Shown: positions 13,585 to 18,010 of the stretch, piece by piece
How positions within the stretch are numbered: position 1 is the stretch's first letter
Layout of the letters: every line of letters starts with the position of its first letter
DNA from: an uncultured delta proteobacterium
GTDB taxonomy: Bacteria; Myxococcota; Myxococcia; Myxococcales; Anaeromyxobacteraceae
Length of the DNA: 64,000 nt
Direction of reading: 5' to 3'
Assembly: GCA_963845515.1 (NCBI GenBank)
Contig: CAWJSR010000023.1
Coordinates: 160,001-224,000, forward strand
Position numbers and translations under genes: made by a program
Notes under the pieces: generated by a model
Databases searched by the model: none
What the model was told of the DNA's origin: nothing
Seen by the model: only the letters and a program-made list of their open reading frames with translations

Positions 13585-14637
13585 TCAGTCGTACAGCGAG
13601 AGCAGCCGCTCCGCCGCCCGCGCCGCGCCTTCGAGGTCCGGCTTCGGCGGCATCGTGCGGGTGAGCACGCTCCGGATCGCGTCGCCGATCCGTCCCGCCC
13701 GCAGGTCTTCGTTGCCGACGTGGACGCAGGCGAGGTGCTGCGCCATCTCCGCCACCATGATCGGGTACTCGGGGAAGTCGCCGCGCTCCGTGTAGACGAG
13801 CCGCGTCCCCGCCGCGATGGCGTCGGTCACGATCCCGTAGCCGGGCTTCGTGACGACCGCGTCCACCGCGCCGACGACGTCGGGGTAGTGGAGCCCCAGC
13901 GCGTCGAGCCGGTCGGTCTCCAGATCCTCCGGATACAGGAAGCGGAAGCCCGCCTCGCGCACGAGGACGGCCGGAGTCAGCCCCGGCAGCCCGATCCCGC
14001 CGAAGGAGACGAGCACAGCGGGGCGGTCGTCGAGCCCGAGCCGGCGCCTGGCGTCGGCCCGCTCCACGCGCGGCCGGCGCGCGACGAACCCCACCTGCTC
14101 GCGCTCGCGGAAGGCGGACAGGTCGCCCGCGAAGGGCAGCTCCAGCAGCAGCGCCGCGTTCCCGTAGGCCCGGGCGGCACGCCCCGCCGATGGCGCGAAC
14201 GCGGGCTGGCGTCCCGACAGGTGCCGGTAGATCCAGTCCCAGGAGAAGTTGCTCATCCCCACGGCGGGGACGCCGGCGCGCGCGGCCGCGTCGAACGGGA
14301 GCGCGGGGATGTCGGCGACGACGAGCCTCGCGCCAGAGCTCCTGAGGAAGTCCACCTCGACGGCGACCCGCTCGTCCCAGGTCGCGTCGAGCGCCGCGCA
14401 GCGGGCGGCGCTCGCCGGCTCGTCGATCTCGAGGGCGTCGCGCTGCACGAGCCCGACGTCGGTCGCGACCGCGCGGAACGCGAGCGGGCCGGGGACGGCG
14501 CGCCGAACGAGCCGCTCGGGCAGGGTCCCCACGAAGGTGATGGGCAGCGACGGCGCGCGCTCGCGGACCGCGCGCAGCACCTCGCAGAGCCGCGTCATGT
14601 GGCCGAAGCCGTGGCCGGTGGCGTAGGCGACGAGCAT
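13585..14637 (-). CDS. GT-B glycosyltransferase-like protein (arabinokinase N-terminal-like)
   Basis: ATGHGFGH.TR, VVADIP, SNFSWDWIY, VSFGG, VVTKPGYG. Confidence 0.7.
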   Translation of the reverse strand: MLVAYATGHGFGHMTRLCEVLRAVRERAPSLPITFVGTLPERLVRRAVPGPLAFRAVATDVGLVQRDALEIDEPASAARCAALDATWDERVAVEVDFLRSSGARLVVADIPALPFDAAARAGVPAVGMSNFSWDWIYRHLSGRQPAFAPSAGRAARAYGNAALLLELPFAGDLSAFREREQVGFVARRPRVERADARRRLGLDDRPAVLVSFGGIGLPGLTPAVLVREAGFRFLYPEDLETDRLDALGLHYPDVVGAVDAVVTKPGYGIVTDAIAAGTRLVYTERGDFPEYPIMVAEMAQHLACVHVGNEDLRAGRIGDAIRSVLTRTMPPKPDLEGAARAAERLLSLYD

Positions 14638-14722
14638 CCCGCGCGCATTCTCGCACGGTCTCCTCGCGCGGCGCGCGCGGCTGTGGTCTCCTTGATGGCC
14701 CTGGAGCGAGGCCCTGACCGAC

Positions 14723-15328
14723 GTGACAGCCACCCCGCTGCTCTTCTCGCTCACCGGCTTTGGCTGAGGTCCTGTCGAAGGGTTCGGTTGAGGAACCGCC
14801 CTCGCGCCCGTGCTGGCGCGGATCGAGTCGGTGGAAGGGGTCGAGTGGGCCGCGGTCGAGGCGACGGGGCGCTTCCTCGCCGTGCGTCCGCGCGCTGGCG
14901 CCGCTGTCGAGCTGGTGGCCGCCGACGTCGAGCGGAGGCTCGGCGGGCGCGGGCGGCGCGCGGGCGACGCGCTGGCGCGGGCGCAGCTGGCGGCGCACTC
15001 GCGCGGCGACCCCTGGTTCACCGCGAAGGAGGCGCACGCCCTCTCGTACATCGAGGGGCGGCTGGTCGCCGTCCACGCGGCCGCGATGGTCGCCGGGGAG
15101 CTCGGGCTCGGGAGCGGCGCGCAGGAGGCTCTCGCGGAGGCCGTGCGGGAGGTCTTCTTCGGCGTGCTCGAGCGCGTGCACGCCGAGGGCGGGCGCGAGT
15201 CGAGCGGCTGGTTCTACGCGGAGTGGCCGCGGATCGCGGCGGCCGTCGCCGCGCGGATGGCGGTCGAGGTCCCGGACGCCGCCGCGCTCTCCGCGCGGCT
15301 CGCGGCCTGCTACGCGCGCCCACCGTAG
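14723..15328 (+). CDS. Candidate selenoprotein with two in-frame UGA (U-x7-U) in an HMA-like N-terminus
   Basis: GTG 14723 is in frame with ORF 14810; TGA at 14765 and 14789; reads GFG-U-GPVEGFG-U-GTALAPVLARIESVEGV; hairpin after each TGA. Confidence 0.65.
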
Positions 15329-15344: not shown

Positions 15345-15641
15345 CTACCCGCAGCACCCGCCGCCGTCGTCGCAGCCGCAGGAGGGGCTGGCGCTCCCGC
15401 CTCGCAGCGCGGCCTTCGTGAGGGCGGCCGCGCAGCCGACACCGGCCTCCACGGTGATGGCGCCAGTCGCGCAGTTGCGCTGGCAAGCTCCACACTCCAT
15501 GCAGCGATCACCGTCGACGAGCGCCGCGCGCCGGTCGCTCAAGACGAAGACGCCGTGCGGGCACACGTCAGCGCAGCGGCCGCAGCCGTTGCAGCGCGCC
15601 GGGGTGTAGCGGAGGGTGGTGACGCCTGACAGGTACCTCAT
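15345..15641 (-). CDS. hgcB: Mercury methylation ferredoxin HgcB
   Basis: CNGCGRCADVCPHGVF, CMECGACQRNC, GVGCA, C-terminal CC; overlaps the hgcA stop. Confidence 0.93.
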   Translation of the reverse strand: MRYLSGVTTLRYTPARCNGCGRCADVCPHGVFVLSDRRAALVDGDRCMECGACQRNCATGAITVEAGVGCAAALTKAALRGGSASPSCGCDDGGGCCG

Positions 15642-16714
15642 CGCGCCCCCCCGGCGCCGAGCACGTGCGACGCCACGAGGACCAGGGCGATCGCCACCGC
15701 GGCGGCCTGGAGCGGCACCGCCCAGCGCATCTCCTTCCGCACCCCCGAGATCCCGGTGAAGGTGGTCGAGCCCGTGAACTGGAGCGTCAGGTAGGAGCTC
15801 AGGGCCGGGAAGAAGAGCATCGCCGCGAGCGCGACGAGCGGCGCGCGGGTCGCCGGACCGGGGAGCAGCGCCAGCGTCGCCGCGGTCACCGGAGCCCCCG
15901 CGGCGAGCCCCTTCACCGAGAAGGCCCGGCCCGGGAGGAACGGCAGCGCGAGCGGCGCCACGGCGGCGCCTGCGAGGATCGCCGTGAGCGTGAGCGCCAG
16001 GATCGGCGCGGCGCGCGACCAGGCCCCGGCGAGGCCGACGCCGAACGCGAGGAGTGCCAGCGCGACCGCGGCAAACACCGCGTACCACTTCAGCGCGGGC
16101 ATGAGCTCCATGGGGAAGAGGGCAGCCCGATCGAGCAGCCCGAAGCGGACTCGGCGCATCTCGGGCGAGGCGACGCGCCCCGCCCGCAGGTACTCGGGGA
16201 GGTCGTCGGCGCGGACCGGACCGAAGTGGACCCGGAAGCCGGTCGCGCACTGCACCTCGTGGGCGGCGACCCCGGGGGCGCCCAGCTGCGGGACGATCAG
16301 CCTGCGGTGGTCGACGACCCGAACCAGCGAGACCGCGCCGACTCGGTGCACCAGCTCCGCCGTTCCGAAGGTCCCCTTGCCGGCGGCGCACCAGACGTTG
16401 ACGCCGCGCGTGTCGAGGACGAGGAGCCACGCGTCGAGCCCGCGGAGGGCGCGGCGGACGACGTCGAAGGTGAGGCCGTAGTTGGCCGTTACGACGACCT
16501 CGGAGTCGCGTCCGGGGTCGCCGACGGCGTACAGGCCCGGCGGCCGCCGATTCCGGTTACGGAACGATCCGAGGCGGCAACGCACGTGCTCCAGTCGATC
16601 GCGCCAGGTCCACGTGGACGGCACGCGAGGAATCATCCCTGCGTCGGTCCGCACCATCCCCTCGACGTATCGTGGCGCCGGTCCCCCCGCGCAGCCGCAG
16701 CCTGATCCGCTCAT
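15638..16714 (-). CDS. hgcA: Mercury methylation corrinoid protein HgcA
   Basis: Cap-helix NVWCAAGKGTFGT, PGLYAVG.P, TANY.LTFD, PQLGAPGV, GPVRA.DLP, TM domain, FTGSTTFT..SGV.KEM. Confidence 0.96.
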   Translation of the reverse strand: MSGSGCGCAGGPAPRYVEGMVRTDAGMIPRVPSTWTWRDRLEHVRCRLGSFRNRNRRPPGLYAVGDPGRDSEVVVTANYGLTFDVVRRALRGLDAWLLVLDTRGVNVWCAAGKGTFGTAELVHRVGAVSLVRVVDHRRLIVPQLGAPGVAAHEVQCATGFRVHFGPVRADDLPEYLRAGRVASPEMRRVRFGLLDRAALFPMELMPALKWYAVFAAVALALLAFGVGLAGAWSRAAPILALTLTAILAGAAVAPLALPFLPGRAFSVKGLAAGAPVTAATLALLPGPATRAPLVALAAMLFFPALSSYLTLQFTGSTTFTGISGVRKEMRWAVPLQAAAVAIALVLVASHVLGAGGAR

Positions 16715-17526
16715 GCCCGTGCCTCCGGCCGCGTCGCCCAGTAGAGTGCGTACCCGAGCTTCCCCGCCAGCACCGCCCCGTAGAACTCACGTTCGTTCTC
16801 CAGCGCCTTCCATACGCCCCGCGGGCCGTACCGCCGAAGGACGCGTGCGACGGTCCGGAGCCGCTCGCCCAGCGTGAGGACGGAGCCGGGACCGCGCACG
16901 ACCCGATCCTTTCGCACCGTCCAGAACATCTCCGGGTTCGACCAGGGCTCGGCCTCGCTCCTGATCTCCTCCGCACCGGCGCGGCGCAGCATCTCCTGCC
17001 AGTGGGCGGGTTCGAGTGGCGTGGTGCCGTATCGGTCGGAGAGCTCCGCCTTCTCGTCGGCGTCGAGCGCCATGCGCCAGGTGGACTCGTGGATCACGAC
17101 GGCGCCGCCGGGGCGGACCACGCGCAGCATCTCGTTCAGCACCGCTTGCGAGTCGTCGGGGATGCCGACCGCGCACTCGTTGATCACCGCATCGAAGGCC
17201 GCGTCGGGGAAGGGGAGCCGCTGCGAGTCCGCGACCTCGAAGCGGACCCTGTCGGACAGGCCGGCCTCCGCGGCGCGCGCCGACGCCGCCCGGACCATCT
17301 CGTCGGAGAGGTCGATGCCGGTGACGTCCACACCGAACTCCCTGGCGTAGAAGATGGCCTGCGTGCCGCGGCCACTGGAGACGTCGAGCACCCGCATTCC
17401 CGGCGCGAGGCGAGCGACCTCTCCCGTCCGTCGGCTCAGCTCCAGTCCGCCCGGGTGGAGGGTCTCGATGCCGCTGAGCTCGATCAGTCGCTCGATGGTC
17501 GGTTCGTGTCGTTCGCTCCGCCTCAT
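16711..17526 (-). CDS. Class I SAM-dependent methyltransferase
   Basis: LHPGG, VLDVSSGRG, GIDLS..MV, LPFPDAAFDAVINEC, RVVRPGG. Confidence 0.88.
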   Translation of the reverse strand: MRRSERHEPTIERLIELSGIETLHPGGLELSRRTGEVARLAPGMRVLDVSSGRGTQAIFYAREFGVDVTGIDLSDEMVRAASARAAEAGLSDRVRFEVADSQRLPFPDAAFDAVINECAVGIPDDSQAVLNEMLRVVRPGGAVVIHESTWRMALDADEKAELSDRYGTTPLEPAHWQEMLRRAGAEEIRSEAEPWSNPEMFWTVRKDRVVRGPGSVLTLGERLRTVARVLRRYGPRGVWKALENEREFYGAVLAGKLGYALYWATRPEARA

Positions 17527-17906
17527 GTCGTCCCTCCCCGTGATGAAGCCGGCTTCGTGGCGATCCCGCTCTCCTTCAGTTCAACGTTCGGCGCGCAGGC
17601 CTCCTCCAGCGCGTCCGCCAGGTTCCTGAGGACGGCGGCGAGCGCCGTCGCGCGCACCCGGTAGAAGACCTCCTTGCCCTGCTTGCGCGCCTCGATGGCG
17701 CCGGCGTCGCGCAGGATCCGCAGGTGGCGCGAGACGACCGAGAGGTCGACGGTGCAGCAGGCGCCGAGGCCGGAGACGGTTCTCTCGCCTCCGCCGTCCG
17801 CCAGAAACGCGAGCAGCGCGAGGCGGGTGGGGTCGCCAAGGGCCTTGAACAGCGCCGGCGAGAGCCAGCGCTGGAGGTTGGGACAGCAGCTCGAGGAACC
17901 GACCAT
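17523..17906 (-). CDS. ArsR/SmtB-family metalloregulator
   Basis: FKALGDPTRL, SVVSRHLRILRDAG, GKEVFY; CC pairs at the N-terminus and before the recognition helix. Confidence 0.9.
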   Translation of the reverse strand: MVGSSSCCPNLQRWLSPALFKALGDPTRLALLAFLADGGGERTVSGLGACCTVDLSVVSRHLRILRDAGAIEARKQGKEVFYRVRATALAAVLRNLADALEEACAPNVELKESGIATKPASSRGGTT

Positions 17907-17940
17907 GGCGTTACGGTAGCACGGTTGCGTCGTTATGCAA
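17907..17940 (-). promoter_or_regulatory. Leaderless-type promoter of the arsR-hgc operon with inverted repeat
   Basis: Minus strand TTGCAT-16-TACCGT with extended TG, 6 nt before ATG; TTGCGT-N4-ATGCAA at 17925-17940. Confidence 0.55.
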
Positions 17941-18010
17941 ACAGACTGGGTTAGCTCGTATATACGGGGCATTGCGAGCTGAGTTTCGTGAGGACTCGAC
18001 AAGTGAGGCT

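Follow-up and report, generated by a model that had tools for sequence, protein, structure and literature searches.

A review from 2026 counts, in its account of families, 119 selenoprotein families, most of which have one selenocysteine (Sec; U) residue and which include the UxxU HMA-type family NF041115, MbdU and a MerT-type family (PMC13188914). NF041115, the UxxU metal-binding (seleno)protein, is listed in the same account as a "putative mercuric reductase" with 2 Sec residues. In the available text of their preprint, Haft and Gwadz describe Sec in six SAO proteins, in HgcB and in HgcA, where it belongs to a CU motif that precedes the annotated start, and report that most HgcA proteins represent the CU selenoprotein form (bioRxiv 10.1101/2022.07.06.499078). 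The available part of a survey from 2006 gives 11 selenoproteins for Anaeromyxobacter dehalogenans, none of which is of the kind presented here, with two Sec residues separated by seven others (U-x7-U) (PMC1794560). Here we describe a gene whose product very probably contains such a pair. It is located on the plus strand of a 64,000-nucleotide (nt) stretch of DNA (referred to as the window), which originates from contig CAWJSR010000023.1 (positions 160,001 to 224,000) of an uncultured delta proteobacterium of the family Anaeromyxobacteraceae (assembly GCA_963845515.1).

No description of this family was found in the literature on Anaeromyxobacter/Myxococcota selenoproteins, hgcA selenocysteine and MerP/HMA selenocysteine. 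No U-x7-U entry is seen in the available part of the 2026 review's account of families (PMC13188914), and the family is not reported by Haft and Gwadz in the available text of their preprint (bioRxiv 10.1101/2022.07.06.499078). Within the limits of the literature covered, we treat the U/C-x7-U/C HMA-like family as undescribed.

The average G+C content of the window is approximately 75%. An in-frame open reading frame (ORF) of 172 amino acids (aa) (14810–15328) extends upstream, via TGA 14789–14791 and TGA 14765–14767, to GTG 14723–14725. Another in-frame TGA (14693) shuts the frame further upstream, which leaves GTG 14723 as the sole possible ATG/GTG/TTG start. Translation with TGA read as U gives 201 residues followed by a TAG stop, with Sec at positions 15 and 23 (U15 and U23) and the N-terminal peptide VTATPLLFSLTGFG-U-GPVEGFG-U-GTALAPVLARIESVEGVEW. 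The predicted true start of the gene really lies 29 codons before that of the shortened "hypothetical protein" found in databases. A preliminary description of this DNA had proposed a hidden protein with two Sec residues, and the coordinates that it gave (GTG 14723, GAGG 11 nt upstream, TGA 14765, TGA 14789 and both hairpins discussed below) all proved correct by sequence and translation.

Both TGAs, placed exactly 24 nt apart, are kept in 51/51 distinct relatives read at the DNA level (31 from Anaeromyxobacteraceae-like genomes and 20 metagenome loci). At the level of the order, 61 genomes were searched in six frames with stops read through. This revealed 18 carriers, i.e. the genome of the window and 17 of the 36 others of its family, and none among 24 genomes of eight other families. 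Of the 20 places found, 19 are homologous, through exactly two TGAs, to query residue 1–9, and the 20th is a C-terminal fragment. When 401 genomes of the phylum were searched with a profile, 29 carriers emerged: 28 in the Anaeromyxobacteraceae (including the source genome, G000) and one in another family. Two TGAs are present in 32 of the 33 places, the remaining one again being a C-terminal fragment. The metagenome loci (L099–L118) constitute a more distant branch, sharing 36–50% identity, over the best aligned segment, with the branch's own query P0072 (a truncated database protein); two TGAs were found in 20/20, within the pattern F-x-U-x-A-x-x-G-L-G-U-G-S-R-L-A-P-V-L-A.

In an alignment of 16 sequences both Sec positions are invariant (16/16), and the most conserved part of the protein is U15-G-P-V-x-G-x-x-U23-G...A-P-V-L-A-R. 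Since the same two TGAs with the same 24-nt spacing recur in every relative with a readable N-terminus, their conservation is far beyond chance. The Gly, Pro and Val codons located between them are represented by 3–4 synonymous codons each, and the three-base-period variation of the upstream segment indicates that it evolves like coding DNA. In the rows listed, contigs from four public runs are identical to the window at both TGAs; in two of these runs, possibly derived from the source sample, the region 14650–14840 is covered with 0 and 1 mismatches. Neither of two objections raised in advance, TGC or TGT codons in the reads and homologues devoid of Cys or TGA at these sites, was borne out: the listed contigs of the four runs are unchanged at the TGAs, both of which are kept in every place that spans the N-terminus. 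In a collection of 5.8 billion proteins, 40/40 listed matches (169–179 aa) begin after the second TGA, because gene callers stop at TGA. They are named, wherever a name is given, "hypothetical protein", and one is labelled Anaeromyxobacteraceae.

A family profile search of 1.84 billion representative proteins yielded 385 matches (E ≤ 1e-3). Among the best 150 of these 385 representatives, (i) C-x7-C-G...P-x-L occupies the aligned positions in at least 34 full-length proteins, (ii) the N-terminus is precisely [M/V]-L-(A-P-V-L)-A-[R/Q]-L in approximately 68, which is the point at which gene callers restart after the second TGA, and (iii) the other approximately 47 are fragments or motif variants. 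The C-x7-C homologues that had been suggested as a check thus do exist. In a joint alignment of 21 Cys and 5 Sec forms, each of the two Sec columns falls on an invariant Cys column, so that Sec/Cys pairing is found at both sites. Loci encoding Cys forms were detected, within the genome collection, in Thermoanaerobaculia (9), other Acidobacteriota (4) and Planctomycetota (2), together with one short match in Myxococcaceae. In the ESM Atlas, the Cys homologue P0064 matches only clusters of "hypothetical protein", with scores ≤0.85.

Each TGA is followed by a conserved hairpin, whose loop begins 17–18 nt downstream. These structures were analyzed in 31 distinct 81-nt segments from genomes and 17 from metagenomes. 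The family consensus of hairpin 1 is GCCUC/GGYU/GAGGC with a lower stem, and its loop begins 18 nt after UGA-1. UGA-2 sits within the loop and 3′ arm of this hairpin. The window form departs from the consensus as a result of F instead of L at residue 21. It may adopt a minimal 17-nt structure, GGUUC/GGUUGAG/GAACC (14781–14797; -5.2 kcal/mol), or a shifted one, CGGUU/GAGG/AACCG with a lower stem (14776–14802; -10.4 kcal/mol). The two lowest pairs of hairpin 1 show compensatory changes (CG 10, GC 10, GU 2, and AU 8, GC 7, GU 7, CG 1, respectively). Its covariation is 0.083 vs 0.048 in shuffles, a value reached by 0/500 of them, a count that is not a probability, given that the sequences are related.

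Hairpin 2 (CGCGCC/CGUGCU/GGCGCG; -11.8 kcal/mol) has a stem starting 11 nt, and a loop starting 17 nt, after UGA-2. All six pairs are invariant in 31/31 genome sequences; in the metagenome set one pair is changed on both sides (CG to UA) in 2/17 sequences and broken in one, and another pair is broken in one. The codons of the corresponding peptide L-A-P-V-L-A are frozen, in that each of A, P, V and the second A is encoded by one and the same codon in 27/27 sequences, the first Leu is CTC in 25/25, and a lone synonymous TTG occurs among 26 codons for the second Leu. Elsewhere in the gene, conserved Gly, Pro, Ala, Leu, Val and Arg positions use 2–4 codons, the commonest at 0.44–0.93. RNAalifold found both hairpins de novo in the metagenome set. 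Cys forms (15 loci, same columns) served as a control: they keep 0–4 of the six pairs of hairpin 2, vs 6/6 in 46/48 Sec forms and 5/6 in the other two, and 2–4 of the five upper-stem pairs of hairpin 1, vs 5/5 in 42/48 Sec forms. The Cys form L083 encodes the same peptide, G-L-G-C-G...L-A-P-V-L-A-R, by other synonymous codons, which break both stems; the control is only partly synonymous, as most other Cys forms differ in amino acids at hairpin 2.

According to the available description of the bacterial selenocysteine insertion sequence (bSECIS) model, such elements have a loop of 3–9 nt, a stem of 4–16 bp, G in the first two loop positions, a UGA-loop distance of 16–37 nt and a minimum free energy ≤ -7.5 kcal/mol (PMC13188914). 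Hairpin 2 (6-bp stem, loop CGUGCU, spacing of 17 nt, -11.8 kcal/mol) agrees with this model, as does hairpin 1 with its lower stem (5-bp stem, loop GGUUGAG or GAGG, spacing of 18–22 nt, -10.4 kcal/mol). The hairpins noticed at the outset after each TGA can therefore be called SECIS-like, on the grounds of conservation, covariation, loss in Cys forms and fit to the bSECIS model. An Rfam scan of 14600–15000 (E ≤ 10) gave no SECIS family, the only match being a chance one to CRISPR-DR29. A third candidate hairpin, in which UGA-1 is embedded (GAGGCCCG/GUGA/CGGGCCUC), was rejected: it pairs in 91% of cells, its covariation was matched by 156/500 shuffles, and a loop just 9 nt from the UGA also speaks against it as a SECIS element.

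The source genome (4.74 Mb, 58 contigs, 88% complete) contains a tRNA-Sec (77.8 bits; ARAGORN SeC, anticodon TCA), selB (291/311 bits), selA (526 bits) and selD, the three protein genes scoring above their cut-offs, so that a search for selA, selB, selC and selD, advised in the preliminary description, found all four. In the family, selA is present in 36/36 genomes. The selD gene (L039/L040; G000:C40:29135-30063) itself contains an in-frame TGA in the context GAG-U-ACK. The hairpin that follows this TGA, GGCGCA/CGUGC/UGCGCC, shares CGUGCU in its loop with hairpin 2 and sits further from the UGA. The selD match consists of two overlapping pieces, which might reflect a frame change or an assembly error.

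Conservation of both TGAs, pairing with Cys, constraints on the RNA and the presence of the Sec machinery together argue strongly for the original proposal. From these lines of sequence evidence we infer that Sec is inserted at both codons, and we consider it very likely that the locus is a real gene encoding a protein with two selenocysteines.

The structure of the protein was modeled with AlphaFold2 from the 16-sequence alignment, with U entered as C (mean predicted local distance difference test score 93.3; predicted template modeling score 0.85). The model comprises β1 (residues 6–10), a loop (11–23), α1 (24–35), β2, β3, α2, β4 (to residue 79) and five helices (82–196). DSSP places residues 14 and 22 in a β-bridge; in the model, the loop therefore folds back and U15 and U23 lie side by side. 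In a search against representative structures, HMA domains rank first for residues 2–86, the top four having Z 8.1–8.8 and a root-mean-square deviation (rmsd) of 1.6–2.0 Å. The best match is the N-domain of ZntA (1mwz_A; Z 8.8, rmsd 1.8 Å, 70/73 aligned), and others are ATP7B (6a71_A; Z 8.6), 4a48_A (Z 8.2), Ccc2a (Z 8.1), CopZ (Z 7.4) and Hg-bound NmerA (2kt3_A; Z 6.8). Foldseek agrees weakly (best E 1e-2; target-normalised TM 0.69 for MerP, 1osd_A). The N-terminal domain is thus predicted to have an HMA (MerP/CopZ/ZntA-like) fold, with the two Sec residues in a widened β1-α1 loop. The HMA/MerP-type character with a wider spacer that had been suggested for the protein is upheld as a modeled fold and not as membership of a sequence profile: the HMA motif (M/L)-x-C-x-x-C is replaced by U-x7-U here and by C-x7-C in the Cys forms, and even the Cys relative P0059 scores 22 bits against PF00403, below the cut-off of 24.8. 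The C-terminal helical domain contains conserved W98, L107, E111 and an H-x-E/A-G-G motif. The same structure search gave no convincing fold match for this domain (helical hits with Z ≤7.7 and rmsd 3.4–5.6 Å).

The Anaeromyxobacteraceae proteins begin 9–16 codons before U15, several of them right after a stop codon, and this short N-terminus leaves no signal peptide in these forms. Signal peptides with a lipobox-like L-x-x-C are present in the metagenome Sec forms and in most Cys forms. The metagenome branch L099–L118 is therefore predicted, from sequence, to comprise exported or lipid-anchored proteins with two selenocysteines.

The Cys forms provide a link with metals. Of 22 longer representatives that were scanned, 7 contain MerT and 7 a canonical HMA domain within the same polypeptide, and NCBIfam recognizes MerTP-like and MerT/CopZ-like parts in these fusions. 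Locus L087 has the order CsoR-like repressor, MerT (79 bits), a protein composed of a signal peptide, a MerP-type HMA domain and the family domain, and MerA (TIGR02053; 499.6 bits vs a cut-off of 454.45). MerT is encoded immediately upstream in L094 and L096, MerC downstream in L092, a CsoR-like repressor in L091, and a multicopper oxidase with an outer-membrane efflux protein in L090. No metal genes were seen among the neighbours of the three closest Cys loci (L083–L085). Genes of mer operons (merT, merA, merC or a regulator) were found nearby only in the distant Cys homologues L087, L094, L096 and L092, and not at the window locus. At the family level, the domain appears to travel with mercury and soft-metal transport, which bears only indirectly on the cytoplasmic Sec form. 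One further fusion was observed in P0087 (352 aa), a truncated member starting VLARLDGIPGV..., which carries a C-terminal dual-specificity protein phosphatase domain (PF22741 and related).

According to the explanation that we favour, translation would start at GTG 14723 and give a cytoplasmic product of 201 residues. At UGA-1 (codon 15), hairpin 1 would recruit SelB with Sec-tRNA(Sec); the ribosome would melt this hairpin, after which hairpin 2 would recruit a second SelB complex, and Sec would be inserted at codon 23. The metal loop, widened from C-x-x-C to U-x7-U, would fold back with both selenols adjacent, and the likeliest function would be to bind a soft metal ion with high affinity, to buffer it or to hand it over, by means of a bis-selenolate site. 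We assign this explanation as a whole a probability of roughly 0.6. Given that Cys homologues either share a polypeptide with MerT or MerP-type HMA domains or are located in mer operons, we infer metal binding and consider a role in binding soft metals rather probable. As for the identity of the metal, Hg(II) or organomercury is the leading candidate, a tentative choice that we rate at somewhat below even odds. The coordinates of the features discussed are presented in Table 1.

Table 1. Features of the two-selenocysteine gene and its surroundings (positions in the window).
Feature	Coordinates	Strand	Evidence or remarks
Candidate Shine-Dalgarno sequence GAGG	14708..14711	+	11 nt ahead of GTG 14723; spacing rather long
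Full selenoprotein coding sequence	14723..15328	+	Translation; homology crossing both TGAs to residue 2-9 in relatives; alignment
UGA-1, predicted Sec 15	14765..14767	+	TGA in 48/48 distinct 81-nt sequences; column of invariant Cys C70 of P0064
UGA-2, predicted Sec 23	14789..14791	+	TGA in 48/48; column of invariant Cys C78 of P0064
SECIS-like hairpin 1, for UGA-1	14779..14802	+	Fold, compensatory changes, RNAalifold
SECIS-like hairpin 2, for UGA-2	14803..14820	+	Fold, pair invariance, frozen codons, Cys-form control
Predicted N-terminal HMA-like β-α-β-β-α-β domain, residues 1-80	14723..14962	+	AlphaFold2, structure searches
Predicted C-terminal helical domain, residues 82-201, five helices	14966..15325	+	Alignments, AlphaFold2
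Context: hgcB (15345-15650) and hgcA (15638-16714)	15345..16714	-	NF040864, 114.4 bits; NF040863, 402 bits; adjacent only within the same genus

Several observations weigh against this explanation or parts of it. No Pfam (PF00403 HMA included) or NCBIfam release 20.0 match was obtained for the full window protein at E ≤ 1, and the hhalign alignment to HMA is weak (probability 20%), with the register as expected: U15 is placed opposite the first Cys of C-x-x-C, and 8 inserted residues come next. Hairpin 1 of the window is off the family consensus, its minimal form being that of just -5.2 kcal/mol. In this G+C-rich DNA, the fold energies are no better than those of shuffles (z -0.8 to -2.4; -0.81 for a 61-nt stretch), so that the hairpins are supported by conservation and covariation and not by stability. 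The link with metals comes from distant Cys forms (approximately 25–45% identity), which are secreted or membrane-anchored, and the window protein lacks a signal peptide. No MerA above the cut-off and no MerT was found in the 88%-complete genome. The Anaeromyxobacteraceae genes show no conserved neighbours in 11 loci, and Sec is classically a redox residue.

This last point leads to the main rival of the metal-binding role, namely that U-x7-U forms a selenol/diselenide centre on an HMA-like scaffold and that the protein is an oxidoreductase or a scavenger of peroxides or electrophiles, and no metal carrier. The available descriptions present most known bacterial selenoproteins as redox enzymes with Sec in place of a redox Cys (PMC1794560, PMC13188914). 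In addition, the β-bridge between residues 14 and 22 of the model would allow the two Sec residues to form a diselenide, a thioredoxin-like gene is adjacent to metagenome locus L111, and the Anaeromyxobacteraceae genes lack metal-gene neighbours. However, the predicted fold is that of metallochaperones and not of thioredoxin, peroxiredoxin or AhpD, and the Cys homologues, which occur beside MerA, MerC and CsoR-type metal repressors, form fusions with MerT and MerP-type HMA domains. We regard a redox function as unlikely, at roughly one chance in five. The Hg/methylmercury-binding or redox role suggested in the preliminary description thus stands in its first part as plausible for Hg or another soft metal, given the fusions and mer operons of the Cys homologues, and its second part becomes the chief competitor. 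A different view is that the gene starts at GTG 14810 and encodes 172 aa, with both TGAs acting as stops and the upstream stretch being a non-coding leader or a separate upstream ORF of 14 codons. The 40 listed database proteins that start after the second TGA, the approximately 68 of the best 150 representatives that begin at the restart motif, and the lack of any Rfam family over 14600–15000 would fit this view, yet the GGN, CCN and GTN codons of the upstream stretch use 3–4 synonymous codons each with a three-base period, and the stretch shows residue-by-residue homology with Cys homologues whose reading frames run on without interruption. A start at 14810 would also remove β1 and the metal loop of a confidently modeled domain. 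Homologues starting near 14810, mentioned beforehand as evidence that would count against the longer gene, do not carry the day, since the Cys homologues are full length through both sites, and this view is very improbable.

The position of the gene suggests another alternative, in which a metal-binding protein with two Sec residues delivers Hg(II) to the HgcAB methylation complex or captures methylmercury. The selenoprotein gene and hgcB converge with a gap of 16 nt, an arrangement kept in the same-genus genome G002 (L010, vs L009 in G000). The available text of Haft and Gwadz includes selenoproteins in both the HgcA and HgcB families (bioRxiv 10.1101/2022.07.06.499078), and the family described here is tied to Hg via mer contexts. 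Against this, HgcA was detected in only 3/37 genomes of the family (G000, G002 and G016), the G016 copy being on a contig other than that of the selenoprotein gene, and 15/18 carrier genomes gave no HgcA match. In the 18 other loci there is no hgcA or hgcB within 1.5 kb, and the 39 nearest called genes of 11 Anaeromyxobacteraceae loci with 8-kb flanks (2–4 per locus, Pfam) include none that is HgcA/HgcB-like. Moreover, the genes are convergent and hence do not form one operon. A dedicated role in mercury methylation is accordingly quite improbable. The association with hgcAB claimed at the outset fails as a general rule, as the adjacency is confined to one genus and HgcA to 3/18 carriers. It is probable that the adjacency is incidental and specific to this genus.

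The soft-metal explanation may be extended to a bolder scheme, which we regard as a long shot. The family would be a widespread soil and sediment group of bis-selenolate HMA-like proteins, cytoplasmic in Anaeromyxobacteraceae and lipoproteins elsewhere, that act as ultra-high-affinity chaperones or sinks for Hg(II)/methylmercury. In hgcAB carriers they would feed Hg(II) to HgcAB or strip methylmercury from it, and the tandem SECIS elements, with UGA-2 in the apical loop of the first, would impose two ordered SelB loadings 8 codons apart.

The hgcB and hgcA genes are preceded by genes encoding a SAM-methyltransferase and an ArsR-type regulator (Pfam, NCBIfam). These form an apparent operon on the minus strand (15345–18002) in the order ArsR-type regulator, SAM (S-adenosylmethionine)-dependent methyltransferase, hgcA and hgcB, in which the methyltransferase stop overlaps the hgcA start (16711–16714), and hgcA overlaps hgcB (15638–15650). 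The N-terminus of the window HgcA (start searched on the minus strand at 16600–16894) is Cys-rich (MSGSGCGCAGG...), and the sole upstream in-frame TGA lies outside a CU context; this HgcA looks like a Cys form, not the CU selenoprotein form. On the other side of the selenoprotein gene there is a divergent gene (13585–14637, minus strand; 350 aa, MLVAYATGHGFGH...), for which neither Pfam nor NCBIfam gave a match. Of the tested loci, only that of G002 keeps this gene beside the selenoprotein gene (81% identity).

The neighbours in the 11 Anaeromyxobacteraceae loci encode kinases, response regulators, PAS sensors, TauE, an amidohydrolase, aconitase and others. Those of 13 metagenome Sec loci are mixed, including one CsoR-like, one ArsR and, in L111, the thioredoxin-like gene. 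Some genomes contain multiple copies of the gene: G239 has three places, two of them with identical scores that may be one repeat, and G005 has two (L014/L046 and L027/L048). The second G005 copy adjoins a sigma-54 activator gene, and genes for HMA and zf_CopZ proteins lie 1.6 kb away from it (L048, one of the 11 loci).

A side observation concerns the start regions of the relatives. A TAnnnT box (TATCCT, TACACT, TAGAGT etc.) is present within the 18 nt preceding the alignment-chosen start in 14 of 19 relatives (L012, L013, L015–L017, L019–L025, L027 and L028), without a Shine-Dalgarno sequence. The box usually ends 6–9 nt ahead of the start, which suggests that these relatives may have leaderless transcripts. 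The window gene has no TAnnnT box, and GAGG is found in its place.

The gene adds a selenoprotein family overlooked by current annotation: 40/40 listed records are truncated, and neither Pfam nor NCBIfam has a model that matches it. Judging from the 385 representative clusters that match the profile, truncated entries could be restored by the hundreds in gene calling and in surveys of selenoproteomes. Bacterial proteins with two Sec residues are few, and UGAs 8 codons apart, each with its own SECIS-like element, offer a compact natural test case for the action of SelB at close sites. Taken with the Cys relatives in mer operons, a site with two selenium atoms on a predicted metallochaperone fold suggests that selenium is used to handle mercury or other soft metals, which would concern anaerobic bacteria of soils and sediments, a mercury methylator among them.

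Compared with the canonical bSECIS (E. coli fdhF type), the hairpins share the location in the coding region, a loop of 4–7 nt, G in the first two loop positions and a loop located 17–18 nt after the UGA. In fdhF, the essential G and U of the loop are about equally far from the UGA. The present elements differ in that there are two of them, arranged back to back for two UGAs 24 nt apart, with UGA-2 in the loop and 3′ arm of the first, and in the absence of an Rfam match. The Hg-related selenoproteins presented in the available text of Haft and Gwadz (HgcA, HgcB, SaoL/SaoB/SaoC, the NF045683 MerT/CopZ fusion and MbdU, NF045648) are alike in that Sec is proposed to be a ligand of heavy metals or organometals and in that databases typically truncate them at the UGA, whereas their folds and motifs (CU dipeptide) are different and none of their models matches the window protein.

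NF041115 is similar in being small, of HMA type and provided with selenocysteine as both of its metal ligands. Against its model, the MerP-type HMA domains that occur in fusion with Cys relatives of our family reach 65–71 bits, below the cut-off of 95 bits. Unlike the window protein, which has no match to this model at E ≤ 1 and combines U-x7-U with a second domain, NF041115 has U-x-x-U and approximately 74 residues. The HMA metallochaperones (MerP, CopZ, NmerA and the N-domains of ZntA/ATP7B; PF00403) have M-x-C-x-x-C in place of the x7 Gly-rich insert G-x-x-U-G-P-V-x-G-L-G-U-G of the family, in which, in addition, both ligands are predicted to be Sec, a helical domain of approximately 120 residues is added and no PF00403 match is found. 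They share with it the same predicted fold and two chalcogen ligands in the β1-α1 loop and helix N-cap, and MerT and canonical HMA domains occur as fusion partners of Cys relatives of the selenoprotein family.

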